Virus record (IMG/VR): IMGVR_UViG_3300010430_000004
Coordinates: 32,001-96,000 of that record
Reading direction: 5' to 3' (one strand)
DNA from: a virus
DNA: 64,000 nt
Position 1 is the first letter of the stretch; every line of letters starts with the position of its first letter. The notes below the pieces were generated by a model. The model had not been told where the DNA came from and made no database searches. It saw nothing but the letters and a program-made list of their open reading frames with translations. A program made the position numbers and the translations under genes. Of this stretch, positions 3,004 through 25,618 are shown piece after piece.

Positions 3004-3555
3004 CTACTGTTTTACTTCTTTAAATCTAGATGGACAGTTATCAGCGTGTAAAGCGTCTTTAATTGTTTTCTGTCCACAAGTACACTTTGGATGATGTTCT
3101 TTAAAAAAGAACTTTTTAAGTTTATCAGCCTCAGTTTCCTCTGTTTCTTCTTCTGCTTCTTTGATCATTTCCTTAATTTCTTGCTTCTTAACCTCATTTT
3201 CAAGATCTGTTAATGATGATCCTGTAGGCAATGTTACAGTGTTCCAACGATTGGTGTTTGTTTTACTTTCAAGGTGTTTGTCAAGATCTTTCACTTTGCT
3301 GGTCACTATACTGTTTAGGTCTTGACTAAACTCAATAACAACTTCTGGTATATTTATTTGTCCACCAACGTCTTTAAAGTCATCATGTTCAAGATAGAAA
3401 TAATAAGTCCCTATCCTAGTAGGGTCATGCTCAATCATTACCAATTTAATGTCCTTTGGTAATTGAGAGAGAATATTCCTATAGGCATAGTGATTTAAAG
3501 GCCATTTATTTGCGTTAAGCCCTACATTATTAATTGCTATCTTGATTTGCCTCAT
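3004..3555 (-). CDS. Hypothetical protein with a C-terminal CxC...H...C motif
   Basis: 183-aa ORF; KCTCG...HADNC. Confidence 0.6.
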   Translation of the reverse strand: MRQIKIAINNVGLNANKWPLNHYAYRNILSQLPKDIKLVMIEHDPTRIGTYYFYLEHDDFKDVGGQINIPEVVIEFSQDLNSIVTSKVKDLDKHLESKTNTNRWNTVTLPTGSSLTDLENEVKKQEIKEMIKEAEEETEETEADKLKKFFFKEHHPKCTCGQKTIKDALHADNCPSRFKEVKQ

Positions 3556-4091
3556 CCTACTTGCTCTTCTTTTTGAATAGTAGGGTTTGATGGATAAATT
3601 CTACCCATAGGGTTTAGCCTTGGCACTCTAAATTGTTTAGCTTCATTATTAAGCAAGAAACCAGTTTTAATTTTTTCAGTTACTGCTAATTCAGTGCCAT
3701 CTAAAAGATAAACTGTTCTGCCTATTTCAAAAGGCTCATTAATCCACTCTACATTATATGGAGCATAACTTCTAATGCTTGTCTTGTCCACTACAGAATC
3801 TTTAAGTTCAATATCCCAACCAATAATTTTGGCAGCGTCCATGAATAATTTAAGGTCTCCATCTTCTTCTAAGAAGACGCGAGTAGAGTTTATAAAGCTA
3901 AATGGGCTTATTAAATCTTTGATGCCAGTGGCTACGATGTCTTCGTGAGGCACACTCACCCAGCCATGTCCAGGGTCTTGAGTATAAGTATATTTCTTTT
4001 TAATTTTAGTTTTGATTTTTAATTCTGTGACATTTTGTCCGAATTCTTGTCCAGCTAATGGTTTATTTTGAGTTCCGATTGGTAAGTTCAT
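3552..4091 (-). CDS. Phage early protein with a DPGHGW...FLEED motif
   Basis: Start moved to MNLPIG (AAGGAG RBS, sigma70 promoter upstream). Confidence 0.6.
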   Translation of the reverse strand: MNLPIGTQNKPLAGQEFGQNVTELKIKTKIKKKYTYTQDPGHGWVSVPHEDIVATGIKDLISPFSFINSTRVFLEEDGDLKLFMDAAKIIGWDIELKDSVVDKTSIRSYAPYNVEWINEPFEIGRTVYLLDGTELAVTEKIKTGFLLNNEAKQFRVPRLNPMGRIYPSNPTIQKEEQVG

Positions 4092-4170: not shown

Positions 4171-4485
4171 TTAGGCAGCAATTTCAATTATTTGTGTGTC
4201 TTCTAGTTGTTCTTCTTTTTGTTTTAAATTGTTTTTGAATAATCTTAAAAGTATGTCTACATCCATGCCACAAGTTTCTAGTGTAATATCCCAAACGCAT
4301 TTATCTAAATGTATCATACACTTATTATTTCTAAAACCACGGTATTTAAAAGCAAAGGTCATTTTATCAAAGCCAATAATTTCCATCATTAGCTCTAAGG
4401 CCTTGCCTTCGTTGTGGTAAAACCTTTTTTCTCTTCCTTCAATTATTATTAAAACTTCTTTAGTATTTATCCACAAAACGTTCAT
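4171..4485 (-). CDS. Hypothetical protein
   Basis: GGAGG RBS before MNVLW. Confidence 0.6.
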   Translation of the reverse strand: MNVLWINTKEVLIIIEGREKRFYHNEGKALELMMEIIGFDKMTFAFKYRGFRNNKCMIHLDKCVWDITLETCGMDVDILLRLFKNNLKQKEEQLEDTQIIEIAA

Positions 4486-5171: not shown

Positions 5172-6332
5172 TTAGTTAAAGTCCAAAACTTTTATAATCA
5201 TAGATGAGTATTCGCCTTCTATAGTAACTTGCAAGTCATCTACCCAACAAATCTCACCTTGCTCATCATTGCTGTTCTCACCAGAAGCAATGTTGTTACA
5301 ATAAGCAAATCGTCCACCACCACTATGATGACAGTCATCATTATTGTAAACATCTGCATGGTCACCTTCATTTTCAACATAAAGACCTGGAGCAATATTA
5401 TAGCATTGGCCAGTAACAGGGGTCAAAACAGTAGACAAGATAACAGCATCAGTACCGTTAGTACCATTAGTTCCATTAGTTCCATTAGTTCCATCAGTAC
5501 CGTTAGTTCCATTTGTTCCATCTTTGCCGTCTTTACCGTCTTTGCCGTTTTCAATAACAAGCTCAGATCCGTCATCACAAACAAGTTTATTGCCTTTTAA
5601 AGTACAGGATTTGCCATCAGTGCCGTTAGTTCCATTTGTACCGTTAGTGCCATCAGTGCCGTTAGTTCCATTTGTACCGTTAGTGCCATCCACACCGTCT
5701 TTACCATCTTTACCGTTAACACCGTTAGTACCGTTAGTGCCATCAGTACCATTTGTGCCGTTGTTTCCTGTATCACCTTTAATATTTGTTTGAAGAACCC
5801 AAACTCCAGCGATTCTTTTAAATACGTCATTGGTATTGGTATTGATAAAGGTATCTCCATCTTTGCCGTCAACACCGTCAACAGGATCTACTGGACCATA
5901 AAGAACTTCAGAACCATCAGCACCATTTAAACCATTAGTACCGTCAACACCATTAGTACCGTTAGTACCGTTTGTTCCAGCAATTCCTTGAATGCCCTGA
6001 GTACCTTGAATGCCCTGAACACCTTGCTTGCCTTGAGCACCAGTAGCGCCTTTAGGTCCGGTTGCTCCTGTAGCACCTGTTGCTCCTGTAGCTCCAGTGT
6101 TTCCTTTGTCGCCTTTTGCTCCATCCACACCGTTAGTACCATTTAAACCGTTAGCTCCATCAACACCATTGTTAATGTCGGCTGTTGTTCCATCTTGACA
6201 TTCAATAGTTCCACCATTAGCGGTGTCTACTACAGTACAAGAGTCTCCTTTAGCTGTTCTAAACTCAACTGATTCATTGGCTCCACAAGCAGTTAATGCC
6301 AGCATCCCCAAAACAATTAATAAATTTTTCAT
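5172..6332 (-). CDS. Collagen-like (Gly-X-Y) lipoprotein
   Basis: Lipobox LTAC; long GAT/GTN/GKD triplet repeats. Confidence 0.85.
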   Translation of the reverse strand: MKNLLIVLGMLALTACGANESVEFRTAKGDSCTVVDTANGGTIECQDGTTADINNGVDGANGLNGTNGVDGAKGDKGNTGATGATGATGATGPKGATGAQGKQGVQGIQGTQGIQGIAGTNGTNGTNGVDGTNGLNGADGSEVLYGPVDPVDGVDGKDGDTFINTNTNDVFKRIAGVWVLQTNIKGDTGNNGTNGTDGTNGTNGVNGKDGKDGVDGTNGTNGTNGTDGTNGTNGTNGTDGKSCTLKGNKLVCDDGSELVIENGKDGKDGKDGTNGTNGTDGTNGTNGTNGTNGTDAVILSTVLTPVTGQCYNIAPGLYVENEGDHADVYNNDDCHHSGGGRFAYCNNIASGENSNDEQGEICWVDDLQVTIEGEYSSMIIKVLDFN

Positions 6333-12236: not shown

Positions 12237-12314
12237 TTATCGGTCAACTACTAAAAAACTTATGACTCATTTTGAGAAAGTTGCAAAAAATATAAAAAAC
12301 TTTCTCGAAATGAG
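12237..12314 (-). promoter_or_regulatory. sigma28(FliA)-type promoter with two operators
   Basis: ATAAGTTT-N11-ACCGATAA (12263-12237); palindromes at 12266 and 12304. Confidence 0.8.
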
Positions 12315-13175
12315 TCGTGACTGATCGGGACAAGAATAGCGTCCTGATACGTCCTGATTAGGTCTATAGGGTATTACATAGCCACCTATATGCCTCTTAG
12401 AGGCAGACCTACGTGGCTAGAATAGGGGCATGAAACTATATGATTTTGCAACAGATTCGGGTATATACGCGCAGTTGCTGAGAGCTGTTAAGAGTGTGCT
12501 ACTATGGGGTTTGGAGCGCCCCATTGCGAACAGCCCCAACTGCCCAGAAAAACTGACAGTGGCCCATACAGGCAGACAGACAGCCAATCAAACAATGACC
12601 CTATCATACAGCCACCTAACAGACAGCCACCCAGTTAGCTATGGCAAAATGCTAGAAATTTGTATAATTTCGCGTATTTATAAAAATTTTGTGTGTGTTT
12701 TTTCCAGAAAAAGTTGCAGAGCTTGAGAAGCGTGAAAAATGTCGCCTAACTTATCGAAATCATTACAGATCTATTTTGTTTTGCCTATTTACGCGTAGGT
12801 TTTGCCCTAGAGGGAGCATGAGTTTTGTACGTGGCTCTGATAAAGTGGCTGATTGGAGTCGGCTAGTTGTGTCGCCTTTGTTGCCTGTCTGTTGTGGTCG
12901 TCTCTTTGTTGTGGCCTATAAGAAAAGCCTAGAGTCAAAGGCCCCTTGCTAGCTGTGGTAAGGGTTCAACCTTCTTTTCCATGCAGAGAAAAGGCCCCTG
13001 GGGGGTTGTCTGAGCTTTCCACCACTGACGAGGGACCCGTTGGATCCTTCTGACACAGTGGTTCGCCTCATGCAGTGTAACCATGAAAGTCCAGAAAAAT
13101 AGGTACCCCCTTACCATAGAAAACGGAAAAGGGTACCTCAAGGAATCCTGCAAAAAAGGAATCCTATACTGGAGT
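12315..13175. other. Non-coding strand-switch region (candidate origin or genome end)
   Basis: No credible ORF; divergent transcription on both sides; A/C-rich and G/T-rich flanks around an AT-rich core. Confidence 0.45.
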
Positions 13176-13177
13176 CC

Positions 13178-13185
13178 CGATACTA
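13178..13185 (+). promoter_or_regulatory. Putative middle promoter box CGATACTA
   Basis: First rightward copy of YGATAYTA; further copies at 13587, 14909, 15091, 15600, 16121, 16746, 18695, 19426, 20526 and 29041. Confidence 0.6.
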
Positions 13186-13581: not shown

Positions 13582-13600
13582 ATTCACGATACTAGTAAAC

Positions 13601-13767
13601 GCTGGGCAAACCATTTGTGCTCGACAGAGTATTGCTTTCGGCTAAATAGCGATAGATACGGAAAGCTCATAGAGGATAAGACCCTTGATTATTGAATAGT
13701 GTACTCTAATGGTCCCTTACGCATTATCTGTCTGTTCTGGATAGTGGTAATTACTGAGTAACCCAGC
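13601..13767 (+). ncRNA. Structured RNA element A
   Basis: Nested stems GCTGGG/CCCAGC, ACCATT/AGTGGT, GACAGA/TCTGTC, TATTGCT/AGCGATA, TAGAG/CTCTA; follows promoter box; ends in a T-run. Confidence 0.6.
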
Positions 13768-13785
13768 ACTTTTTTTGGAGAATAT

Positions 13786-13995
13786 ATGAGAACAAAAATA
13801 AAACATAAATTATTGTTAGAAGTTGAAATAGAGTGCCCTCTTGATAGTGATCACCCTGAACTTCATATAACAAAAGAAGAAGTTGCCGAATCATTGCTTG
13901 GTTCGGGTACTTATGCGGTTTGTGGAGACAATCCTAAAAAATATACAGCATTTATGTCTATCAAAAAAGTAACAGAAATAGATAAAGAATCATAA
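13786..13995 (+). CDS. Hypothetical protein
   Basis: 69 aa, GGAG RBS. Confidence 0.6.
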   Translation: MRTKIKHKLLLEVEIECPLDSDHPELHITKEEVAESLLGSGTYAVCGDNPKKYTAFMSIKKVTEIDKES

Positions 13996-14207
13996 TGGCT
14001 ATTAGAAAGCTGTTTAATTGGATGAATCAATACTACGTTCCAGGCTGTAGTGGAAAATGGAGCCATGATTGTCCTGTATGTAAAAAGCCAGATATGATGG
14101 GCACTGCTAGTTGGGACTATGATAAAAAGGATTATTACATAACTGAACATTGCAAATGTGGATATGTTTACCGAGGCATGAGAAAAGACAAGGATGATAA
14201 TGAGTAA
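13995..14207 (+). CDS. Small Cys-rich (Zn-ribbon-like) protein
   Basis: CPVC...HCKC. Confidence 0.6.
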   Translation: MAIRKLFNWMNQYYVPGCSGKWSHDCPVCKKPDMMGTASWDYDKKDYYITEHCKCGYVYRGMRKDKDDNE

Positions 14208-14433
14208 GCTTTCAGATATGATTAGAAAAGGTGAAAGATATGGCATTCAAGCCTGTAATCGTTGCGATTACCCTTCTCTGGTCAGAGCTAATACTTGTGC
14301 TGCTTGTGGATCATGGGATATTGAAGCCAACTTCTATGGAACTACTCAATACAAAAAGCATTTAGATGAAGATCCAATAGTGAGACAAAAAGCCAATGCC
14401 ATTAAATGGCTAAGAACTAGAACACTGAAATGA
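14194..14433 (+). CDS. Small Zn-ribbon protein
   Basis: CNRC...CAAC. Confidence 0.6.
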   Translation: MIMSKLSDMIRKGERYGIQACNRCDYPSLVRANTCAACGSWDIEANFYGTTQYKKHLDEDPIVRQKANAIKWLRTRTLK

Positions 14434-14485
14434 ATATTCATGGGCGTGGAGTCCATGAAACAATTAAACAACCGTGGAGGTTAAT

Positions 14486-14911
14486 ATGCAAGCAGATGAC
14501 GCTATCAAGTTATCAAACAAAGCCAAAGAATTATACGATAAAATACTAGATCTATCACTTGTAGATTTTTTGAAAAGAATAGATAAAGATGTTTCGTCCA
14601 ATGCAAATAGGGGTTTTACTAGTTGTATGGTTGATTTGTCTTTTTTGATAAATAATACTAGTATTCTTTTTGAAGCTCTCCAGCCGCTAAACAACCCTAG
14701 CGAGCGAGATGCTATTATGAATAAACTCAAAAAGAGAGTAAAAGACAAATTACCTGTAGGGTGGAGTAGCGATTTTCTAATGACTCCTGGATTTAGGAAA
14801 TTAAAGAAAAACCTGGAACAACACTACAAAGAGTCTGGATTTCAAGTATCTAATGATTATAACAATCCACATACCAAATTTTTAATTAAGTGGCAGAAAC
14901 AGGAACCTTGA
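14486..14911 (+). CDS. Hypothetical protein
   Basis: GGAGG RBS before MQADD. Confidence 0.6.
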   Translation: MQADDAIKLSNKAKELYDKILDLSLVDFLKRIDKDVSSNANRGFTSCMVDLSFLINNTSILFEALQPLNNPSERDAIMNKLKKRVKDKLPVGWSSDFLMTPGFRKLKKNLEQHYKESGFQVSNDYNNPHTKFLIKWQKQEP

Positions 14912-14920
14912 TATTTATCT

Positions 14921-15072
14921 TTGTAGTTGGGAGCTAAGTATCAACGCACTCCAAACCATACATTTTGAATATGTAGCTACTGTGTGTTGGTCGTTGAGAA
15001 GACCAGTGACCCATCTAAACAAAAGTCTCTCATGTACGGTTTGGTCCGTTTAATGATCCGTTTCAACGCACA
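14921..15072 (+). ncRNA. Structured RNA element B (rod-like with a central bubble)
   Basis: CCAAACCaTACAT (14951) pairs with ATGTAcGGTTTGG (15032); apical TGGTC/GACCA; terminal GTTG/CAAC; no ORF before the next promoter. Confidence 0.6.
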
Positions 15073-15101
15073 GGACGCATGGTTATTTTATGATATTAAA
15101 G

Positions 15102-15272
15102 AATTGAACATTGAAAGCGTGGGTCACTCAGGGTAGCTGACATAGTGACATCTGGCTGTCCACCTTTTTACGCCTGATGAGGATTACCGAAACATAGAAA
15201 TATGTCGCGTGGAGTCTCCCCAGGACAGGAATAACTGGAGACCTAGGCTACCCACTCTTTGAATGTTCAATT
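15102..15272 (+). ncRNA. Structured RNA element C carrying the hammerhead ribozyme
   Basis: 21/23-bp terminal inverted repeat (15102-15124 with 15250-15272). Confidence 0.75.
15166..15214 (+). ncRNA. Type I hammerhead ribozyme
   Basis: Stem I ACGC/GCGT; core CTGATGA (15174); stem II GG-atta-CC; GAAA; stem III CATA-gaaa-TATG; GTC cleavage triplet (cut after 15206). Confidence 0.85.
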
Positions 15273-15281
15273 AGAGGAATT

Positions 15282-15596
15282 ATGGATAAAGACTTTCTTG
15301 AACAGCTACAATTAATCATTTTTAATAAGGTTCGTCTAGAACCAGTAGGTTATACAGTCAAAATTTTGATGCCCTCTTCAATGTACGACCAGTGTATTGA
15401 CCATTTCACTGCACTGGGTATAAAACCGTATATAGGAAAATTGGAACTGTCTGGACAAAGCGGCCCCCATTATAGTTATGTAGTTTTGATAAATCCAGAC
15501 GCTGATGAAGTGGACCAACACGCAGTATCTGAAGCTGTAATGATTCCAGCTAAACTGGACGGTTTGGGTCCTATACTAGAATACGTCCATATCTAA
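15282..15596 (+). CDS. Hypothetical protein
   Basis: 104 aa, GAGGA RBS directly after element C. Confidence 0.65.
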   Translation: MDKDFLEQLQLIIFNKVRLEPVGYTVKILMPSSMYDQCIDHFTALGIKPYIGKLELSGQSGPHYSYVVLINPDADEVDQHAVSEAVMIPAKLDGLGPILEYVHI

Positions 15597-15613
15597 TTTC
15601 GATATTAATATTT

Positions 15614-15684
15614 ATTCAAGGCATCCTAGAGTCGCGATAGGATGGTGGGAGTAAACCGCACGAAAGGCCCACTTCACCTTGGAT
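15614..15684 (+). ncRNA. Structured RNA element D (three-way junction)
   Basis: ATTCAAGG/CCTTGGAT closing stem; CATCCTA/TAGGATG; GTGGG/CCCAC. Confidence 0.55.
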
Positions 15685-15697
15685 GTTTGGAGAATAT

Positions 15698-15901
15698 ATG
15701 ACAAAATATAAAAACATTTCTATTAGAATTCCAGCACATACAACCAACAATGGCAAAATCATAGGTTTATATTTTAATTTTCCTACCAAGTTTCATATAG
15801 AAAAAACAAAACTGCCATCTTCTACCAGATATATACTAGACCTAGCTATTCTTGGTTTTGGAATTTATATAAATATTGTCAGAGGTCTTGATGCCACATA
15901 A
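15698..15901 (+). CDS. Hypothetical protein
   Basis: GGAG RBS before MTKYK. Confidence 0.55.
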   Translation: MTKYKNISIRIPAHTTNNGKIIGLYFNFPTKFHIEKTKLPSSTRYILDLAILGFGIYINIVRGLDAT

Positions 15902-16136
15902 AAATTATACTTGTTGTGACAGGAATATTTGTGAATGTGGAGAAAAAGAACACCGTACTCATGGCAGTCAAAAAGTAAAAATTGACATTAGAGAAGCGAC
16001 TAAAAAAATTGAATTAGCTTTCCATATAGAACAAAAATACCCCCAATTATCTCTTATAGAAATTAACAGAATAGTGGCAGGAATCCTAAAAGGCAATGTT
16101 CAGCTTTTAGATAAAAAGTCTGATATTAAAAAATAA
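15891..16136 (+). CDS. Hypothetical Cys/His-rich protein
   Basis: MPHKNYTCCDRNICECG. Confidence 0.55.
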   Translation: MPHKNYTCCDRNICECGEKEHRTHGSQKVKIDIREATKKIELAFHIEQKYPQLSLIEINRIVAGILKGNVQLLDKKSDIKK

Positions 16137-16209
16137 GTAGTAACTCAAGAGTAGAGTGCCATACCGAAAGAAGTATGAGGTGTGTCAGGTGCGAGTCCGG
16201 CCTACTTAG
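16134..16209 (+). tRNA. tRNA-like element with an abnormal 8-nt anticodon loop (pseudo-tRNA or mimic)
   Basis: Acceptor TAAGTAG/CTACTTA; D-arm ACTC/GAGT; CATAC-cgaaagaa-GTATG; T-arm GTCaGG-TGCGAGT-CCGGC; no CCA. Confidence 0.65.
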
Positions 16210-16212
16210 ATG

Positions 16213-16354
16213 TTATCGTCGGGTGATTCAGAAATGAATCAAGGGAAGCAAGATAATCAGCTCAGTCTCTGTAGACACTAAACTCAGGGTTCTTGTAACA
16301 TCGTTTTAAATTTAACACCGAAACTAGTCCGGTGTAATTGACTAGCCCAGATAA
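16213..16354 (+). ncRNA. Structured RNA element F with an H-type pseudoknot
   Basis: TTATC/GATAA closing stem; GATTCA-gaaa-TGAATC; GCAAGA/TCTTGT; ACACCG/CGGTGT whose loop CTAGTC pairs with GACTAG. Confidence 0.6.
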
Positions 16355-16364
16355 GGAGAAAATT

Positions 16365-16745
16365 ATGGCAGCGCCATTTATAATCAAATATGGTATAGAT
16401 GATTCCAATGGAACTCTTGGAGTTATAGAAACTAAAAAATCCAGAAAAGGAAATTATTACGAAAGAATCAATATTGGTTCTGGATGGGAATATAATCACC
16501 ACTACGAAAAAGATAAGGTATTTATTAACGATGGTTATCAATATGCTTATGCTGCCATAGTTGATTGGCTTTTAGGCAGAGATGATGAAATAGTTTATGA
16601 TCTTGATCTTAACACTGCTCCACCATTTCTTAAGGTTGAAAAAAGTAGTTGTTTTGTATATATCTCAGTAATAGACTTTGATGGTTTTGATATTGATGAA
16701 TTTCACAAATGGACAGAAAACAAAGTAATGGTAAGAGTTTGGTAA
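16365..16745 (+). CDS. Hypothetical protein
   Basis: AAGGAG RBS before MAAPF. Confidence 0.65.
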   Translation: MAAPFIIKYGIDDSNGTLGVIETKKSRKGNYYERINIGSGWEYNHHYEKDKVFINDGYQYAYAAIVDWLLGRDDEIVYDLDLNTAPPFLKVEKSSCFVYISVIDFDGFDIDEFHKWTENKVMVRVW

Positions 16746-16759
16746 CGATATTAATAAAC

Positions 16760-16824
16760 GGATATGCAGTCCACCGCGTATGATGCGTAGCTGGTCTTCT
16801 TTAAAGAATCATACTCTTGCCAGC
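16760..16824 (+). ncRNA. Structured RNA element G (loop-loop pairing)
   Basis: Hairpin loop GTATGAT (16778) is complementary to ATCATAC (16808) inside the GCTGG/CCAGC stem. Confidence 0.5.
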
Positions 16825-16842
16825 GATTTTTTAGGAGAATTT

Positions 16843-17097
16843 ATGGAATTTTGGGTAACTCTTATTGGAGTACATAATTTACACGTAGATGGAGTAAAAG
16901 AAGCATTAGAAGCTAACTGTACTCATGTATTGAATGATTATTATATTTTTGAAGGTTCTCTTGAATATCTTGAAAATCATTACGGAGTAGAATTTTCTAG
17001 TCTTGGCGAAGGTGCGGTTCCATCTCTAGGAGATATGGATCAAGGTGCTCTTATTCATCTTTGCTTTGAAGTTTTTGGAATAGATGTGACTATATGA
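16843..17097 (+). CDS. Hypothetical protein
   Basis: AGGAG RBS before MEFWV. Confidence 0.6.
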   Translation: MEFWVTLIGVHNLHVDGVKEALEANCTHVLNDYYIFEGSLEYLENHYGVEFSSLGEGAVPSLGDMDQGALIHLCFEVFGIDVTI

Positions 17098-17209
17098 GTG
17101 CTTCCCTTTTTATTTTTATACTAGCAGTGATTGTACCACACGAAGCAGACACTATTGTTTGGTTTGCTTGGTTCATTTCACTTTTTATTGATTTTGAGTA
17201 GGAGAATTT

Positions 17210-17917
17210 ATGAACAGAAGAGATCTTTTAAAAACCGGAGCAGCACTTTCTGCCGTTGCATTTTTGCCTTTTTATAAAAGCAAAACAAAACCAAAGTGGG
17301 CAAAGGCTGATCATATTAAAACTTTAGATAGTTGTCTTTATCAGTATAATAAAAGAATAACCAAAGATCTTCCACCTGTTTATTACAAATGGGGAAAGAA
17401 ACTAAACGCATCAATAGATGCCAACACTACTACTTATATCAGGCAAATTTCTATAGAAATGGCAGCGCCCAATGTTACCAAACAAAATATCATAAATGAA
17501 ATTAAAGAAAAATGGAACGATGACTCTGCAATCTTAACTACTATTGGTGCAGAAGGGGCTTTTATCGATTTGGATACTGAAACCTTTAGAGCTCATAGAG
17601 ATATAGCTTCCCTTAAAAGATCCTTAAAACAAAACAGAGAATACGAAGATTCGAAAAGCATGACAGAATATAAGGAATGTATTATTGATAAAAATCCTCA
17701 GTATTCTAGAAAGTGGAGAGAATGGTACACTGAAAATAAAAGGCACATCCATGTATTGCCTGTGGGAGAAAAATCTATAATCAAAGAGTCTTATAAAACA
17801 AGCAATAGATTTTGTATAGACTCTTTTGCTAATCAAAACATTGCCGCCAGAGACAAGACTATTCAGGATATAAAAAATAAAGAAATTAACCCACTTTATT
17901 ATAGGTCCCTTATATGA
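17210..17917 (+). CDS. Hypothetical protein with a twin-arginine-like signal
   Basis: MNRRDLLK followed by a hydrophobic stretch. Confidence 0.6.
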   Translation: MNRRDLLKTGAALSAVAFLPFYKSKTKPKWAKADHIKTLDSCLYQYNKRITKDLPPVYYKWGKKLNASIDANTTTYIRQISIEMAAPNVTKQNIINEIKEKWNDDSAILTTIGAEGAFIDLDTETFRAHRDIASLKRSLKQNREYEDSKSMTEYKECIIDKNPQYSRKWREWYTENKRHIHVLPVGEKSIIKESYKTSNRFCIDSFANQNIAARDKTIQDIKNKEINPLYYRSLI

Positions 17918-18240
17918 AGAAAAGAAAAGCACCTAAAGTTATAGCTGGGGCTCGTGGGTTGTTTGTTAAAGACGGAGTGACTCATGGGTATGCTGTTGGT
18001 GTATCTGTGGTAGCTAACTATGCCAACATCTCTTTTGGTACCGTCAGGGTAGTAAAAGGTCTGGTAGAAAAGTTTACCGAACTCCAAGAATGCGAATTAC
18101 AAATCTTGGACCCTGCCACTAATGAAATAATACACAAATTAGACCTTAAAGATTATAAACCCTATATTACAGCTAATGATGGTTTATTTACTTGCCAAAT
18201 ACCGCTGAAGGTTGATAAGGAAAAAGATGAAGATAATTAA
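17914..18240 (+). CDS. Hypothetical protein
   Basis: 108 aa, ATGA overlap. Confidence 0.6.
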   Translation: MKKRKAPKVIAGARGLFVKDGVTHGYAVGVSVVANYANISFGTVRVVKGLVEKFTELQECELQILDPATNEIIHKLDLKDYKPYITANDGLFTCQIPLKVDKEKDEDN

Positions 18241-18703
18241 AGCGCCAGCAACATTAAAAATTGAAGGACCTTCTGTATTCCTTGCAGGAAGCATAGAAAT
18301 GGGCAACGCTGTTGATTGGCAAAGTTCCATTACAGACTCTATAGAAGAATCTGGATTGTTCTGCACAGTATTGAATCCTAGAAGGGAAGACTGGGATTCT
18401 TCATGGTTGCAGAGTATAGAAGATCCACAATTCAAACAACAAGTAAGTTGGGAATTAAATGCTTTGGAAAAAGCAAAAGTAGTAGCTATGTATTTCGCGC
18501 CAGGGACAAAGAGCCCTATATCTTTGCTTGAGTTGGGCCTATACGCTGAAAGTGGCAAAATGATAGTGTGCTGCCCTCACGGTTTTTGGAGAAAAGGAAA
18601 TGTAGACGTAGTGTGCGAAAGGTATGGAATTCCAGTTGTCGAAACGCTCGAAGAACTGGCCGATGATATAATTGCTGAATTAGAACATTACGCCCGATAT
18701 TAA
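18227..18703 (+). CDS. Nucleoside 2-deoxyribosyltransferase-like protein
   Basis: VFLAGSI...DWQ...LNPRR...QVSWEL...PISLLELG. Confidence 0.85.
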   Translation: MKIIKAPATLKIEGPSVFLAGSIEMGNAVDWQSSITDSIEESGLFCTVLNPRREDWDSSWLQSIEDPQFKQQVSWELNALEKAKVVAMYFAPGTKSPISLLELGLYAESGKMIVCCPHGFWRKGNVDVVCERYGIPVVETLEELADDIIAELEHYARY

Positions 18704-18712
18704 TATTTAATA

Positions 18713-18787
18713 TACCCTAAAGCCTGAGCTCAAGTGGCCAAATGCTGATGGAAAATCCCACAATCATTCAAATGCCCAATTAGGGTG
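18713..18787 (+). ncRNA. Structured leader/RNA element
   Basis: ACCCTAA/TTAGGGT closing stem after promoter box 18695, abutting the GGAGG RBS. Confidence 0.4.
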
Positions 18788-18796
18788 GAGGTTGCC

Positions 18797-19438
18797 ATGA
18801 GCAAAAAAATAGAAGAATTCAAATACAGTTTTATAGTAGATATCATTACTCTTAAAGAATTCATTGAGAGAGTAGAAATTAAAGAGTTTGATGATTTATT
18901 TTATGCGTATAATGCGCAAGTATCAACGCCAGATTTTTCTGCTTTTTTAGAAGATGTAAATGATTATCCAGAAGAAGAAACTCACTATAAAAAGAAAGTG
19001 ACCTCAATGGTTAAAGCTAATGAAGAAAAGCTTTTTCTTAATTATGTTCTTAACAATGGCGAACATAGCTTTAAATGGAAAGTACCTATACAAGATTTTT
19101 ATGAAGACTTGGGCATAGATCACATGATGAACTTTGGCATGGCAAAATGTATAGTAAAGCTTGGCGCTAGAAGATATATGGTTGCTGACCCCTGCGATTT
19201 TGCCAGACTTCATGGAAAAAGAGGAAAAGGAGTCGTTGCTTATCATCACAATAGGCTTCTTATTAGAGAAATGATGCCTATAACTGAAAAGGAAGCTATT
19301 CGTAGGGCTAAAAAAATTATAGGAAGAAAACCCACAAAAGAAATGATCAAAAATTTAGAAGCAGCAGGTGAGGTCATTGAAAAAGCAAATGAACTTGTCA
19401 AAAAAATAAAAATTTCCAAAAATGACGATACTAAATAA
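18797..19438 (+). CDS. Hypothetical protein
   Basis: GGAGG RBS before MSKKI. Confidence 0.65.
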   Translation: MSKKIEEFKYSFIVDIITLKEFIERVEIKEFDDLFYAYNAQVSTPDFSAFLEDVNDYPEEETHYKKKVTSMVKANEEKLFLNYVLNNGEHSFKWKVPIQDFYEDLGIDHMMNFGMAKCIVKLGARRYMVADPCDFARLHGKRGKGVVAYHHNRLLIREMMPITEKEAIRRAKKIIGRKPTKEMIKNLEAAGEVIEKANELVKKIKISKNDDTK

Positions 19439-19442
19439 GTAC

Positions 19443-19514
19443 ATCTATGCTATCTTACCCTGGAAAGGCGTATTGAATCATTCTGCGGATTCTGTAGGAA
19501 AGTAAGTCATAGAT
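19443..19514 (+). ncRNA. Structured RNA element H (multibranch)
   Basis: ATCTATG/CATAGAT, CTTAC/GTAAG, CCT-ggaa-AGG, GAATC/GATTC. Confidence 0.6.
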
Positions 19515-19530
19515 AGGGAGTAATTGCCCT

Positions 19531-19599
19531 GGAAAAGTAGTTTAATTGGTTAAAACCCCCTCGTTGAGGGGAATGTCGGTTCGAGTCCGGCCTTTTCCG
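19531..19599 (+). tRNA. tRNA-like element, nominal GTT (Asn) anticodon in a non-canonical arm
   Basis: Acceptor GGAAAAG/CTTTTCC; D-arm GTTT/AAAC; CCCCTC-GTT-GAGGGG; T-arm GTCGG-TTCGAGT-CCGGC; no CCA. Confidence 0.7.
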
Positions 19600-19617
19600 A
19601 TTTTTTTAGGAGAATTT

Positions 19618-19806
19618 ATGGAAAACATAGACAAATTATTTATATATTTCCTTATACAAACGTTCGTAGCGGCTGGAATTATGACTATATTTAAAGTTAT
19701 AGGCGTAGCACCAGAAAATTTAGATATGAATATGATATTTGCCATTGCTGTTGGAACAGGCGTGTTCTGGAGCGTTAAGTACCATCTTGGGCAAAATGGA
19801 AAATAA
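19618..19806 (+). CDS. Small two-TM membrane protein
   Basis: AGGAG RBS before MENID. Confidence 0.6.
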   Translation: MENIDKLFIYFLIQTFVAAGIMTIFKVIGVAPENLDMNMIFAIAVGTGVFWSVKYHLGQNGK

Positions 19807-19981
19807 AGAAAAGAAAAATAAAAGATCCAAATATATTGGAAGGTTTGATGCTCTATCTGACGAGTATTCAAAAGTAAACAGAAGAAGAAGCCGAACATTA
19901 ACAGCAGACAATACAAGTACCCAGGGTCAACACTATAATGGGCACACATCAACTTCTGGTGGAAAAATGAGCACAAAATGA
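19796..19981 (+). CDS. Small basic protein
   Basis: Start at MENKEK, overlaps both neighbours. Confidence 0.5.
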   Translation: MENKEKKNKRSKYIGRFDALSDEYSKVNRRRSRTLTADNTSTQGQHYNGHTSTSGGKMSTK

Positions 19982-20310
19982 ATATTAGGTTTAACCCAAA
20001 AGGTTTGACAGAATCTTTTTCGGTAATATCTGTAGATTTTAGAAAAGATTCACCTAGAAGTTTTTGTCCTCACATGGGAAAGGTAAACTGGTTCAATTTA
20101 TATATAACCAATATATTATCTATACAAGACATGGGAAAATATAGAGAAATAAAAACAGATACGAGTGCTTCTGGAAATAGCCCCTATAGGCATCTTGTAA
20201 CTATAGGAGTTGGAAAAATGGATTCTAATGGAAGGCTTATATTCTTTGCACAAAACTCCCTACAAGACCTGATAGAGCAGTTAAAAAATTCAGGAGCAGA
20301 ACTGTATTAA
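19978..20310 (+). CDS. Hypothetical protein
   Basis: 110 aa, ATGA overlap. Confidence 0.6.
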   Translation: MNIRFNPKGLTESFSVISVDFRKDSPRSFCPHMGKVNWFNLYITNILSIQDMGKYREIKTDTSASGNSPYRHLVTIGVGKMDSNGRLIFFAQNSLQDLIEQLKNSGAELY

Positions 20311-20320
20311 TCTTAAATAT

Positions 20321-20521
20321 ATGAAATTAAAGTATTTGTCTGATTTGAAAAAAAATCAAAAAATTACACAAGGCTTAGAGAATCCTCACCAGCCTAAAAA
20401 GAACAGCATGGGACACAAATCTGGTGGACAGATCCTTCGCTACGGTTCAGATATATTTGCTAAACCTAAATCTAAGGTACCAAATAGCAAAATCGCCAGC
20501 AGATCTAAAAAAGACTACTAA
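20321..20521 (+). CDS. Small basic protein, probably on a leaderless late mRNA
   Basis: AATCTTAA begins 12 nt before the ATG; no SD. Confidence 0.55.
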   Translation: MKLKYLSDLKKNQKITQGLENPHQPKKNSMGHKSGGQILRYGSDIFAKPKSKVPNSKIASRSKKDY

Positions 20522-20540
20522 CACCTGATATTAAATTTTG

Positions 20541-20625
20541 AAGGAAAAAAGACTGTGAGCTAGTATCCTTTAGGGTGTGGCCCGTACCGACTTTTTCTTA
20601 TAGTTTTCTCACAGCTATAGGAAGG
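20541..20625 (+). ncRNA. Structured RNA element J (pseudoknot)
   Basis: CTGTGAG (20553) pairs with CTCACAG (20608) in the loop of TCTTATAG/CTATAGGA; internal TATCC-ttta-GGGTG. Confidence 0.55.
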
Positions 20626-20643
20626 GCGCTTTTAGGAGATCTT

Positions 20644-23209: not shown

Positions 23210-25618
23210 ATGGAAAAGAAGATTAAAGTTAGCGCAAAATTTGACATGGCAGAGTTTGACCGTGATCTGGATAGGATGAAGGACAAACTCAAAGAAATGT
23301 ACGCGCCTAGCAACCAGGCTAGACAAACAGCTCAAACAGCTCAAAGAGCCCAGTCGCAAGGCTTGGCACCGTCAGGATTTGCCCAACAAGCTCAGGGTCT
23401 ATATAAAGCTACAGCCAATCAAGATATGCAACAGCTTGATAATTATATAAAAAAACAAGCAACTTCAAACTCAGGTATCAATAAGGCCCTCGAAAACAGA
23501 ACCAAGCAACTAAAAGAACTTAAAAAAGAATATTCAGACATTATAAAGCTTGGTGAAGAGGATCTTAAACTTAAACAACAGATAGCAAAGACTGAAGCTT
23601 CAGTTAGCAGACTTAGAGAAGTAAATAATCAGAAAAATGTAAATATAAACGCTGCAATGGATGCTAGACAAGAAATTGCCAGTGGATTGCCTCAAAAAAG
23701 AGAACAAGAACGTTTATCTGGAATGAGAAGGCTAGGTACTGCTTACCAACACGGTGGAATCGGTGGAATGGGCAAGTCTGCTTTCAGGATGATGAAACAA
23801 AATCCATTCGGAGTGGCTTCAGGGGCAGCAGCACTAGTTGGCGCTGGAATTAACTTAGCTGTTCCAATAATGAGACAAGAAGACTCTGCTGAGAGAAGAA
23901 CATTAGGCGCTCAAGGTAGAGCCGTGTCAAATGCTGGTTTTATGCAAGAAAACGTTATGCAGGGCAATGGTCAAACCAATATGTTTTGGATGGGCGAGAA
24001 CAATAAGGCAATGCAAAGTGCCATAAAAGAGATGAAAGAGCAACGCAAAACAGACAACTGGAAAGTTGGAGGTGCCGCCGCCGCCGTTACTGGTGGATTA
24101 GGTATGGCAGCTACAGGTGTCGGTGCCCTTCCAGGTCTAGCATTATCAGCTGGTGGAGCCGCTTATGCTGGTTATAATTTTGTATCTGATGAAAACATGA
24201 GAAACAAAATGCTTGGTGGAATGGGCTTTAGTGGTCGTAGACAAAGATATGAATCTGGTCTTGTTGAAGGTGCCATGAGCAACTACAAAGAAAACCTTGA
24301 AAATGAAAAAAGACTGAACCCATTTAAAAGAATGGGCGAACAATACTATGATAGAAATGGTATGAGAAATTTAAAAGCTCAAAGACAGACAGGGCTCGAT
24401 GATGAAGGTATGTACGGAGAAGGTGGATTCTTAAAAAATATCCTTGGAAGTGGTTTTACTCAAGAACAAGGTATGAGCATGATGAATCAAATATCTGCTA
24501 GTGGCGGCTCAACTAGAATGTCTCAGGATCCAACCCAAGCATTAAAATATGTAAGACAAATGAACCTAACAAATGCTGGATCAGTAATGGGCAAACTCTC
24601 AGGCACTATGGGAGGCGCTGGAGAAACAGATCAAGCTACTATTAAAATATTAGCTGAAGGTATGAAACAAGGCTTAAACTCATCTGATTTTGCTGAAGAA
24701 CAACGCAAATTTGCTTCTACCGTTTCTCAGATGGTTTTTAGATCAGGGACTCAAGATGTTGAAGGTGCTCAAGGTATTGCTAAAAACTTTGCTTCTTATC
24801 TAAACGATAAAACTAGCCGTGGAATCCAAGGGGCTGAAGGTGCATACGGAATCCAACAAGGTATAAGCTCAACTAGTGGTGGAATACGAGGGGCTATTCA
24901 AGCTTCATCTATTATGAACAGTTCTTCATTGGGCAAAATGAGCCATGATCAACGCTTATCTTTTATGGATCTTAGCGAAGAAGACATTGCTGCTGGTGGA
25001 GCTGAAATAGAATCAATGGCAAAAGCAGCTGGAGTTTCAGTTGAAGAGTTTAAAAAAGAAGCAATGAAAGTCAAACGAAATGCTGTTGGCCTAAGATCTA
25101 GCACTGATGGCTATAAAGCCAAATATCAAGAAGCGATGGCTTCTGGAGATGAAGAAGGCGCTAGAGATATTATGGGTAATTATATATCTGCCTTAGCTGC
25201 TGAAGATAAAACCTTCAAAGGAAAAGGAAGATCAGAAAGAGAAGCTTTTGCCAAATCAAATTTATCAGCTACAGGTGCAGCAGCAGACGATACTGGAGTT
25301 TTAAAAGAATTAACTAAAGACTCTACTGGTAGAATAGGCGATGATACAGAAAAGTCTAGAGCAAGATCACAAGAAATTGCCCTCGATGAATTTACTAAAG
25401 TAAAAGATGAGTTACAACAAGCAGCTGAAAATGCTAGTAACATGAGTGCAGCAATGATGGAAGCACTTCAAGGTTTGGCAAATGCTGTTAAACAAGAAGG
25501 TACACAATCAGTCGAAGAGTTTGGCAAAAATCTAAAACTACTAAATGAAGAACTTAGAAAATCAAACCAATCTTCTGGATACCAACAACAGCCTACTGGT
25601 GGGAAAAGGGGTAATTAA
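23210..25618 (+). CDS. Tail tape measure protein
   Basis: About 800 aa, helical and G/A/M/Q-rich, with central hydrophobic segments; heads the baseplate module. Confidence 0.75.
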   Translation: MEKKIKVSAKFDMAEFDRDLDRMKDKLKEMYAPSNQARQTAQTAQRAQSQGLAPSGFAQQAQGLYKATANQDMQQLDNYIKKQATSNSGINKALENRTKQLKELKKEYSDIIKLGEEDLKLKQQIAKTEASVSRLREVNNQKNVNINAAMDARQEIASGLPQKREQERLSGMRRLGTAYQHGGIGGMGKSAFRMMKQNPFGVASGAAALVGAGINLAVPIMRQEDSAERRTLGAQGRAVSNAGFMQENVMQGNGQTNMFWMGENNKAMQSAIKEMKEQRKTDNWKVGGAAAAVTGGLGMAATGVGALPGLALSAGGAAYAGYNFVSDENMRNKMLGGMGFSGRRQRYESGLVEGAMSNYKENLENEKRLNPFKRMGEQYYDRNGMRNLKAQRQTGLDDEGMYGEGGFLKNILGSGFTQEQGMSMMNQISASGGSTRMSQDPTQALKYVRQMNLTNAGSVMGKLSGTMGGAGETDQATIKILAEGMKQGLNSSDFAEEQRKFASTVSQMVFRSGTQDVEGAQGIAKNFASYLNDKTSRGIQGAEGAYGIQQGISSTSGGIRGAIQASSIMNSSSLGKMSHDQRLSFMDLSEEDIAAGGAEIESMAKAAGVSVEEFKKEAMKVKRNAVGLRSSTDGYKAKYQEAMASGDEEGARDIMGNYISALAAEDKTFKGKGRSEREAFAKSNLSATGAAADDTGVLKELTKDSTGRIGDDTEKSRARSQEIALDEFTKVKDELQQAAENASNMSAAMMEALQGLANAVKQEGTQSVEEFGKNLKLLNEELRKSNQSSGYQQQPTGGKRGN

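Follow-up and report, generated by a model that had tools for sequence, protein, structure and literature searches.

Clusters of tRNA genes in phages such as T4 and T5 contain interspersed small open reading frames (ORFs) and stable RNAs of obscure role, T4 RNA C and D among them. The tRNA elbow motifs also occur in tRNA-like RNAs such as YrlA and the tRNA-like domain of transfer-messenger RNA (tmRNA). We know of no biological role for most hammerhead ribozymes of bacteria and phages. Here we describe an array of small RNAs and ORFs at 13.2-20.6 kb of a 64,000-nt window, the whole stretch of DNA that was analyzed, which covers positions 32001-96000 of a 168,536-bp virus record with repeated ends (IMGVR_UViG_3300010430_000004). 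Its central element, called E3 and located at 15102-15272, joins a hammerhead to a double-pseudoknot RNA. Coordinates are those of the window, and features are on its plus strand, unless stated otherwise.

Core criteria for type I hammerheads of bacteria and prophages were given by Perreault et al. (2011, PMC3088659; Rfam RF00163), in the sections used here. Theta ribozymes, which are minimal versions of the hepatitis delta virus (HDV)-like fold, adjoin phage tRNAs, and Kienbeck et al. (2024, PMC10879173), who do not mention hammerheads, proposed that they serve in processing. In HRIMA-1 and non-circularly permuted hammerheads, found almost only in metatranscriptomes, the core itself is rearranged (Eckert et al. 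2023, PMC10085705). Autoregulatory leaders of T4 genes 32 and 43 place a pseudoknot or hairpin 5′ of the ribosome-binding site (RBS), which is kept with the gene across phages (PMC3014915).

We consider it fairly probable that the array is a fast-changing set of accessory cassettes at the tRNA locus of this phage clade, with stand-alone RNAs and gene-linked leaders side by side. Each cassette would consist of a phage-specific single-box promoter (YGATAYTA, presumably middle or late), a structured 5′ RNA and small ORFs. We count in it a single strongly supported ribozyme-fused family, three probable leaders, seven further candidates, and either one or two tRNA mimics that do not decode. This reading draws directly on sequences, covariation, permutation, context and ORF linkage, and it is from these that promoter activity, cleavage, partners and functions are proposed below.

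E3 contains a hammerhead between two halves of a double pseudoknot

E3 was delimited by homologues, covariation and a covariance model. Within an 11-bp outer stem, half A (15117-15161, by covariation) consists of an invariant 5′ heptamer, helix Pa (15123-28/15144-49), one strand of the first pseudoknot (PK1, 15131-37), an invariant CAUCU and one strand of the second pseudoknot (PK2, 15156-61). The hammerhead follows at 15170-15210 with a stem I of 4 bp, CUGAUGA (15174-80), a stem II of 2 bp, GAAA (15189-92), stem III and GUC (15204-06), and the cut is predicted after C15206. Half B (15207-15253, by covariation) starts at this predicted cut and contains helix Pe (15214-19/15237-42), the other PK2 strand (15223-28), a conserved GAAUAACU joiner and the other PK1 strand (15247-53). 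Each half is thereby a short hairpin, with its loop paired to the tail of its partner half, and nearly the same hexamer opens both.

By the core criteria of PMC3088659 the hammerhead is of type I, having CUGANGA, GAAA and UH at the cut as well as stems I-III with compensatory changes. Loop II varies widely among E3 members, and no conserved pairing partner of it was seen. The hammerhead of the original prediction is real as to its core. It is not a lone ribozyme in a leader but belongs, as one of several modules, to a conserved RNA family of larger size, which could not be seen from the sequence alone.

The E3 family occurs in two permutations and covaries

The first homologue was found by nhmmer in an unrelated 45-kb virus (L060). 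A generic hammerhead pattern gave mostly chance matches in coding DNA, and one locus among them, that of L060, proved to be an E3 homologue. With a two-motif pattern, 31 of 37 viral matches are genuine, and bacterial genomes give five genuine matches, including Pseudomonas nitroreducens and Bordetella trematum. Four cultured phages carry E3 by blastn, namely Enterobacter phage SDFMU_EhYP, where it lies in the gap between capsid and tail genes, Pectobacterium phages Pappous, where it lies 11 nt before tRNA-Met, and Taid, and Dickeya phage Setonix. None of the E3 homologue loci is reported by Rfam at the gathering score, though the type II hammerhead in L060 was detected; E3 itself matches no hammerhead model and no riboswitch in Rfam 15 at E ≤ 10. 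That type II hammerhead belongs to a run on the minus strand of L060 (4720-5370), together with two aberrant tRNA-like RNAs, the E3 member and another closed RNA.

Members are arranged in two circular permutations, half A-hammerhead-half B as in the window and hammerhead-half B-hairpin-half A. In the first form (19 sequences), 89.7% of the cells are paired versus 67.9% after shuffling, 27 of the 38 pairs are changed on both sides, and none of 500 shuffles reaches the observed pairing, slid controls giving 34-46%. In the permuted form (nine sequences), 98.2% are paired and 23 of the 44 pairs covary. Because both pseudoknots covary, the pairing that could be read as competing with the outer stem is a fixed pseudoknot. 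The catalytic core and the cleavable triplet are intact in all 29 other distinct members. The letters of CUGAUGAG and GGAAUAACU were fixed by the search pattern and the other invariant blocks were not; the 5′ heptamer, CAUCU and an octamer after the cut are invariant outside the pattern. The covariance model scores an untrained member at 125 bits and finds permuted members as two split hits. On these sequence comparisons, E3 is strongly supported as a widespread, apparently undescribed ribozyme-fused phage RNA family. No description of its domain was found in the literature searched, which did not extend to supplementary motif catalogues, so that a prior description is possible. Incidentally, the 3′ part of E3 is present a second time in contig L261 (13354-13470). 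This copy is partial, without half A or the CUGAUGA box, and may be an assembly repeat.

The covariance model matches none of 31 related phage records, which points to horizontal gain. We suppose that E3, together with the tRNA-shaped E8b and E5a described below, came from other phages as stand-alone RNAs.

We considered that all elements could instead be 5′ leaders or stabilizers acting in cis, shielding the 5′ end or gating the RBS, in which case the hammerhead would process the mRNA of ORF 15282. Every element does have a box before it and either an RBS or another box after it, the closing stems of three elements end at the RBS (15102, p = 0.001; 18713, p = 0.016; 15614, p = 0.039), the three leaders below travel with their ORFs, and mRNA processing was proposed for prophage hammerheads in the sections of PMC3088659 used here. 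However, ORFs downstream of E3 members are mutually unrelated or missing, and members are often found among tRNAs (9 of 28 are within 36 nt of a tRNA or T-arm). No ORF immediately follows E2, E5a, E5b or E8a, and the conservation of the E3 core goes far beyond what a stabilizer needs. We therefore regard leaders throughout as an unlikely explanation, if the best of the alternatives.

The hammerhead may mature the RNA to which it is fused

We propose from the conserved layout that the hammerhead is a built-in maturation device of E3. The cut after C15206 would make half B always start at the same conserved G in both permutations, and in the permuted form the same cut would trim the 5′ end of the whole domain. 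Because stem I has only 4 bp and borrows a core strand, cleavage should release stem I and the core should close. The two similar halves would then be locked by the two pseudoknots into a nuclease-resistant core of ~120 nt.

For this core, we rate protein binding highest, at nearly even chances, the partner being for instance a factor of host defence or of RNA handling. The reasons are that members have no regulated gene in common and that the RNA passes freely between phage loci that are RNA-rich and highly expressed. A ligand sensor and a processing aid for tRNA operons are both rather unlikely, and a selfish RNA is improbable.

A related idea is that E3 is a natural aptazyme, whose core binds a metabolite or signaling nucleotide and switches cleavage, and that other elements are riboswitch-like sensors as well. 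The invariant joiners would fit a binding site, and the 3′ strand of stem I, common to the core, would offer a route of coupling. On the other hand, no common regulated gene was found among the ORFs downstream of E3 members, riboswitch models do not match, and the permuted form would release the ribozyme altogether. Regulated cleavage thus seems a little less probable even than leaders throughout, and built-in maturation is retained.

E8b and E5a are shaped like tRNAs

E8b (19531-19600) is the single accepted Rfam match in the array at the gathering score, E ≤ 5 or E ≤ 10, as a tRNA (RF00005, 48.1 bits). The comparison with Rfam, a check proposed in the original prediction, gave no match of other elements; sub-threshold matches to SpF41, GIR1, flavi_FSE, MIR166 and Bacteroidales-2 were rejected. 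In E8b the acceptor, D and T arms are all complete (7/7 acceptor and 5/5 T pairs), T-loop and D-loop motifs are present, CCA is not encoded, and a T7 run follows. The 7-nt anticodon loop is absent, as the anticodon arm is replaced by a 6-bp stem with a 3-nt loop, leaving 18 nt between the D and T stems versus 22-23 in tRNA, and ARAGORN leaves the anticodon unassigned. E8b is not expected to read codons.

Sixteen further viral elements in which both the acceptor and the T stem are paired, and the D and T stems are 14-20 nt apart, were found by a pattern scan; loops of 3-5 nt close 10 of them. The covariation of this short-arm family (76.9% versus 57.0%) holds for the acceptor and T stems, the D helix being mis-registered in the alignment. 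One of the relatives described below, G031, carries a short-arm element at the matching position, and the elements may not form one lineage.

E5a (16134-16209), recognized by eye, has a 7-bp acceptor, a 4-bp D stem, an 8-nt loop at the anticodon position and a variant T loop. It has no Rfam match to RF00005 at E ≤ 10, is called by ARAGORN only at a relaxed threshold, and weakly resembles an element of relative G029 (nhmmer, E 2.7). The neighbors of both RNAs are candidates by predicted folding without homologues. E5b (16209-16302) starts from the E5a discriminator and has an 8-bp closing stem, and E8a, with its box at 19426-19530, has a 7-bp closing stem and directly precedes E8b. Since E8a runs up to the 5′ end of E8b, and E5b begins where E5a ends, E8b and E5a could be RNase P or Z signals that release a neighbor. 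From its sequence, E8b is most likely either a tRNA-shaped decoy against tRNA-targeting defences or such a cutting signal freeing E8a. E8a and E8b together were also considered as a tmRNA and rejected; RF00023 does not match them while the real tmRNA of G029 was detected, and the ARAGORN call was made at a relaxed threshold among many false ones. Nothing in the analysis supports the earlier suggestion that RNAs of the array replace tRNA function or act as sponges.

Three elements are probably leaders of their genes

The elements at 14437, E5c and E7 travel with their ORFs in one to three other phages, and are therefore probably gene leaders. The first, with a variant box (14431-14485), has a 9-bp hairpin, an A-rich linker and an RBS hairpin before ORF 14486. 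The syntenic contig L435 has the same layout with an identical 13-nt RBS hairpin before a homologue of this ORF (27% over 137 aa, E 2.6e-14).

E5c (16316-16358) is a compact H-type pseudoknot (stems 16316-20/16330-34 and 16324-29/16340-45) just before the RBS of ORF 16365, which has no Pfam match and no database relative. Its homologue in L435 has one compensatory change in stem 1 and precedes a weakly similar ORF; an E5c pattern scan of viral contigs gave no match. Directly before this homologue, L435 has at 1700-1785 a box and a closed RNA of ~70 nt with a T run, in the slot of E5a and E5b in the window.

E7, with its box at 18695-18796, consists of an internal-loop hairpin, a C/A-rich linker and a hairpin at the RBS. 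It is kept before homologous ORFs (37-41% identity) in L433, L434 and L435 with compensatory changes in the internal-loop hairpin, two of the three having an exact box and one a variant box. It is partly kept and diverged in L436 and absent in L437 (ORF identity 23-28%). The E7 of the window has a weak lower stem, and its RBS-proximal strand is covered by an alternative closing stem. An E7 pattern scan of metagenomes, with a gap range one base too narrow for a known homologue, gave no match. The ORF after E7 (18797-19438, 213 aa) has 37 relatives. HK97-fold capsid proteins and encapsulins fill all 50 matches listed for its structure model (predicted local distance difference test, pLDDT, 88; best Z 8.7, root mean square deviation 2.6, 131 residues), with a Foldseek E of only 0.014 and a Z near background; the ESM Atlas gave no usable match. 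By this model it is possibly a reduced capsid-fold protein, encoded at a distance from the head genes, that might act as a decoy or modify size.

All three leaders cover or flank the RBS and, by analogy to those of T4 genes 32 and 43, are most likely translational operators for autogenous or phage-repressor control.

Promoter-like boxes are clustered, but most elements fold like shuffled sequences

Exact YGATAYTA boxes are at 13178-13185, 13587-13594, 15091-15098, 15600, 16121-16128, 16746, 18695, 19426 and 20526. Nine of the 46 boxes of the genome are thus within 7.4 kb where 2.0 are expected (p = 1.5e-4), and the window has 21 versus 10.0 ± 3.4 by chance. The 100 nt after eight cluster boxes are 40-46% GC versus a median of 34% after the other 38 boxes, many of which are probably chance sites inside genes (p = 1.1e-4). 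The predicted clustering of boxes with GC-richer non-coding segments was therefore borne out. No -35 element is common to the boxes, and the box is also found before genes of relatives, so we infer that it is a phage-specific single-box promoter. The first box (13178-13185) comes after a long non-coding region and is followed by a short leader and ORF 13231, the same arrangement being found in L121, L435 and G031.

A box at every element had been claimed, and eight cluster boxes are exact but that of the 14921 element is a one-mismatch variant at 14909. The earlier element list missed 14437-14485 (variant box at 14431) and took 16134-16356 as two parts rather than three. T-runs, said to end most elements, reach at least T6 after only three (13601, 16760 and 19531) and T4 after three more. 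The hammerhead core and two tRNA-shaped segments are present at the places claimed, and so are pseudoknot-type pairings at 16316-16345, at 16778-16824 and inside 15102-15272.

As for the clear stems reported for each element, 15102 (z -3.7) and 19531 (z -2.0) alone fold better as single sequences than their dinucleotide shuffles do, and z is -1.2 to +0.7 for the other elements. A custom-made pseudoknot-tolerant score gives p values, uncorrected for 12 tests, of 0.005 (16314-16348, containing E5c), 0.045 (16760), 0.05 (14925), 0.055 (15102) and 0.1-0.46 (rest). This test is weak because the covariation-proven 15102 element barely registers. Because most elements fold no better than shuffles, homologues were taken as the deciding evidence, and the homologue and covariation check proposed earlier succeeded for E3 and E8b but left seven elements without homologue.

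That only E3 is functional, the orphan and tRNA-shaped elements being a decaying tRNA/tmRNA cluster plus chance structure in GC-richer spacers, is the least probable account even with z near zero for most elements, true tRNAs here in relatives and a closest relative that lost the region and keeps a gene remnant, as it is opposed by the perfect acceptor, D and T stems and cleanly closed short arm of E8b, seen in at least 16 other viral loci, by the conservation of E5c, E7 and the 14437 element, and by an intact box of its own for each element.

Seven candidate elements have no homologue

In an nhmmer search of all elements against ~4 Mb of loci, no homologue was found for E1, E2, E4, E5b, E6, E8a and E9. 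Individual searches with E1, E2, E5 and E8a returned chance matches only, as did a motif scan for E1 (two matches). The structures that follow are predicted foldings.

E1 (13601-13776) is a multibranch candidate with a 6-bp closing stem, a T7 run and an RBS. E2 with its variant box (14909-15084) has an 11-bp helix (14980/15073) and a possible loop-loop pairing; an 8-mer is duplicated in it (14942-14949 and 15064-15071), either copy of which can pair with 14982-14989, and this would allow a switch. E4 with its box (15600-15690) is a three-way candidate with an 8-bp closing stem. E1 and E4 share a short motif with the cyclic di-GMP-I riboswitch (RF01051), which was rejected for lack of an Rfam match at E ≤ 10.

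E6 with its box (16746-16830) has a pseudoknot (16778-84/16808-14 crossing 16790-94/16820-24) with an inner 3-bp hairpin and a T6 run. By eye its topology is HDV-like, with a nested pseudoknot, a 7-bp P1 starting with G, P2, and a 3-bp P3 with a 7-nt loop. An HDV-like or theta ribozyme was rejected, as P1.1 and the J4/2 strand with the catalytic C are missing, GG and P4 are absent and Rfam has no match; only five pyrimidine-rich bases follow P1. E9 with its box (20526-20638) gives no folding signal; it may form a pseudoknot (20541-51/20591-99 crossing 20553-59/20608-14) or else a long hairpin on its 3′ side.

The array occupies the tRNA locus of the clade

The genome encodes tail sheath, baseplate proteins, major head protein and DNA polymerase, and is therefore that of a large myophage. 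When the region was compared with cultured phages by blastn, no close relative was found, the sole match being the nucleoside 2-deoxyribosyltransferase-like gene (18227-18703, PF15891). The array sits just right of a ~1-kb non-coding stretch at a switch of strand and GC skew. This GC-richer stretch (12237-13177), with blocks conserved in L126, L121 and L435, is likely a genome end or origin region. The minus-strand genes to its left appear in a sequence scan to be driven by two sigma-28-like sites.

With a conserved 802-aa gene at 23210 as a marker, 31 related viral records were collected. In six of them (G011, G012, G016, G021, G029 and G031), tRNAs, tmRNA or tRNA-like RNAs lie upstream of the marker gene at a distance of 5-21 kb, and in G003, G004 and G007 tRNAs are located elsewhere in the genome. 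In four of the six, a homologue of the deoxyribosyltransferase-like gene is near the tRNA or tRNA-like genes. G031 has the order of the window, with the non-coding stretch, a box, RNAs, a box, a nested RNA with a short-arm tRNA core and the deoxyribosyltransferase-like gene. In the closest relative (L126, 70% protein identity), which lacks the array, the region is only ~2 kb, with the same boxes and a remnant of the deoxyribosyltransferase gene (~4230-4375) but no counterpart RNAs; tandem 13-16-nt repeats, three with a promoter box, are at 3513-3620. Counterpart RNAs were also not found in the marker-gene flanks of L121-L123, L129 and L130. By this comparison, the position of the locus is conserved across the clade and its RNA content turns over fast. 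The predicted structured-RNA locus is thereby upheld to the extent that six relatives keep tRNAs, tmRNA or tRNA-like RNAs here, and no fewer than two types of element are covarying, conserved RNAs that stand alone.

No canonical tRNA is evident in the array or the genome by ARAGORN and Rfam. A third tRNA-like RNA of this genome follows a sigma70-like promoter (L006 ~16724-16806, genome 146724-146806), with a perfect T arm and a long acceptor-like stem but not a normal cloverleaf. An ORF-free, GC-richer segment of ~340 nt with a T run at its end lies at 110250-110720 of the genome (L140), and an ORF inside the array (17210-17917) has a twin-arginine signal peptide (PF10518, E 4e-5).

Further RNAs are on the minus strands of the G031 and G029 loci (L232 and L234). 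A common RNA of ~120 nt (L232 ~12740-12860, L234 ~6020-6120) holds two T-loop hairpins in one multibranch and has no Rfam match. Promoter-driven RNAs of ~200 nt (L232 ~12380-12610, L234 ~2170-2350) have similar closing ends, GUGAC ... GUAGCGAC ... GUCAC, the one of G031 containing the short-arm tRNA core, and Rfam gives nothing for them beyond a marginal tRNA score. In G029, a tRNA-like RNA with a ~70-nt D-loop insertion and a 9-nt anticodon loop comes directly after the tmRNA (L234 9908-10050).

Discussion

The earlier picture of this region is right in outline and too uniform in detail. One uniform RNA arsenal is not supported, as three elements are tied to downstream ORFs and seven are without homologue and with little or no folding signal. 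Several points weigh against reading the array as accessory cassettes around E3. Those seven elements mostly fold like shuffles. No partner protein gene travels with E3, part of the invariance of E3 and E8b is imposed by the search patterns, and a very short stem II with an outer stem touching the RBS makes a local cis role possible for the E3 of the window. The leaders have one to three homologues each, too few for statistics, and the ORF match of E5c is weak (26% over 66 aa, E 0.005).

A more far-reaching possibility, which we regard as doubtful, is that E3 represents a new phage RNA class, with a pseudo-symmetric permutable core that needs the hammerhead-made 5′-OH to carry out its own function, be it ligand sensing, catalysis or the inhibition of a host defence enzyme, and that the array is a mobile kit of such counter-defence or host-control RNAs replacing the tRNAs of the clade.

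E3 offers the hammerhead a concrete, testable job, that of maturing an attached conserved RNA domain, with the same predicted cut constant across two natural permutations. Because members are in phages of laboratory-tractable hosts and in sequenced Pseudomonas and Bordetella genomes, this is testable now. The array also suggests that non-decoding RNAs and leader-gene cassettes can refill the tRNA locus of a phage, and it provides three leader candidates that are new.

Like the T4 and T5 clusters, the array mixes small RNAs with orphan ORFs, and relatives keep real tRNAs here; unlike them, it has no canonical tRNA and has a promoter-like box per element. E8b and E5a share acceptor, D and T arms and elbow motifs with tRNA (RF00005), YrlA and tmRNA domains, but the anticodon arm is closed by 3 nt in E8b and by an 8-nt loop in E5a. 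Their 5′ and 3′ ends are normal, unlike those of YrlA, and they have no tag ORF or tmRNA match. E5c resembles the T4 gene 32 leader as an H-type pseudoknot 5′ of the RBS that is kept with its gene (one homologue, with a weak ORF match). In contrast to that leader it is ~9 nt from the RBS and has no long U/A tract, and the ORFs linked to our leaders are not single-stranded DNA-binding protein or polymerase as for genes 32 and 43.

E3 agrees with the type I hammerheads of PMC3088659 in its full consensus core, three stems, 2-bp stem II and phage intergenic setting, but its stem I leads into a conserved ~120-nt double-pseudoknot domain in two permutations, and no such domain is described in the sections of that paper used here. 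As with theta ribozymes (PMC10879173), a self-cleaving RNA, predicted in E3, is within a few bases of phage tRNA genes; the chemistry would be that of a hammerhead, about one-third of the members touch a tRNA, and the cut would set the start of E3's own domain. With HRIMA-1 (PMC10085705), E3 shares a hammerhead core, several pseudoknots and natural permutation, whereas in E3 the core order is standard in all members, the attached domain is what is permuted, and the carriers are DNA phages.

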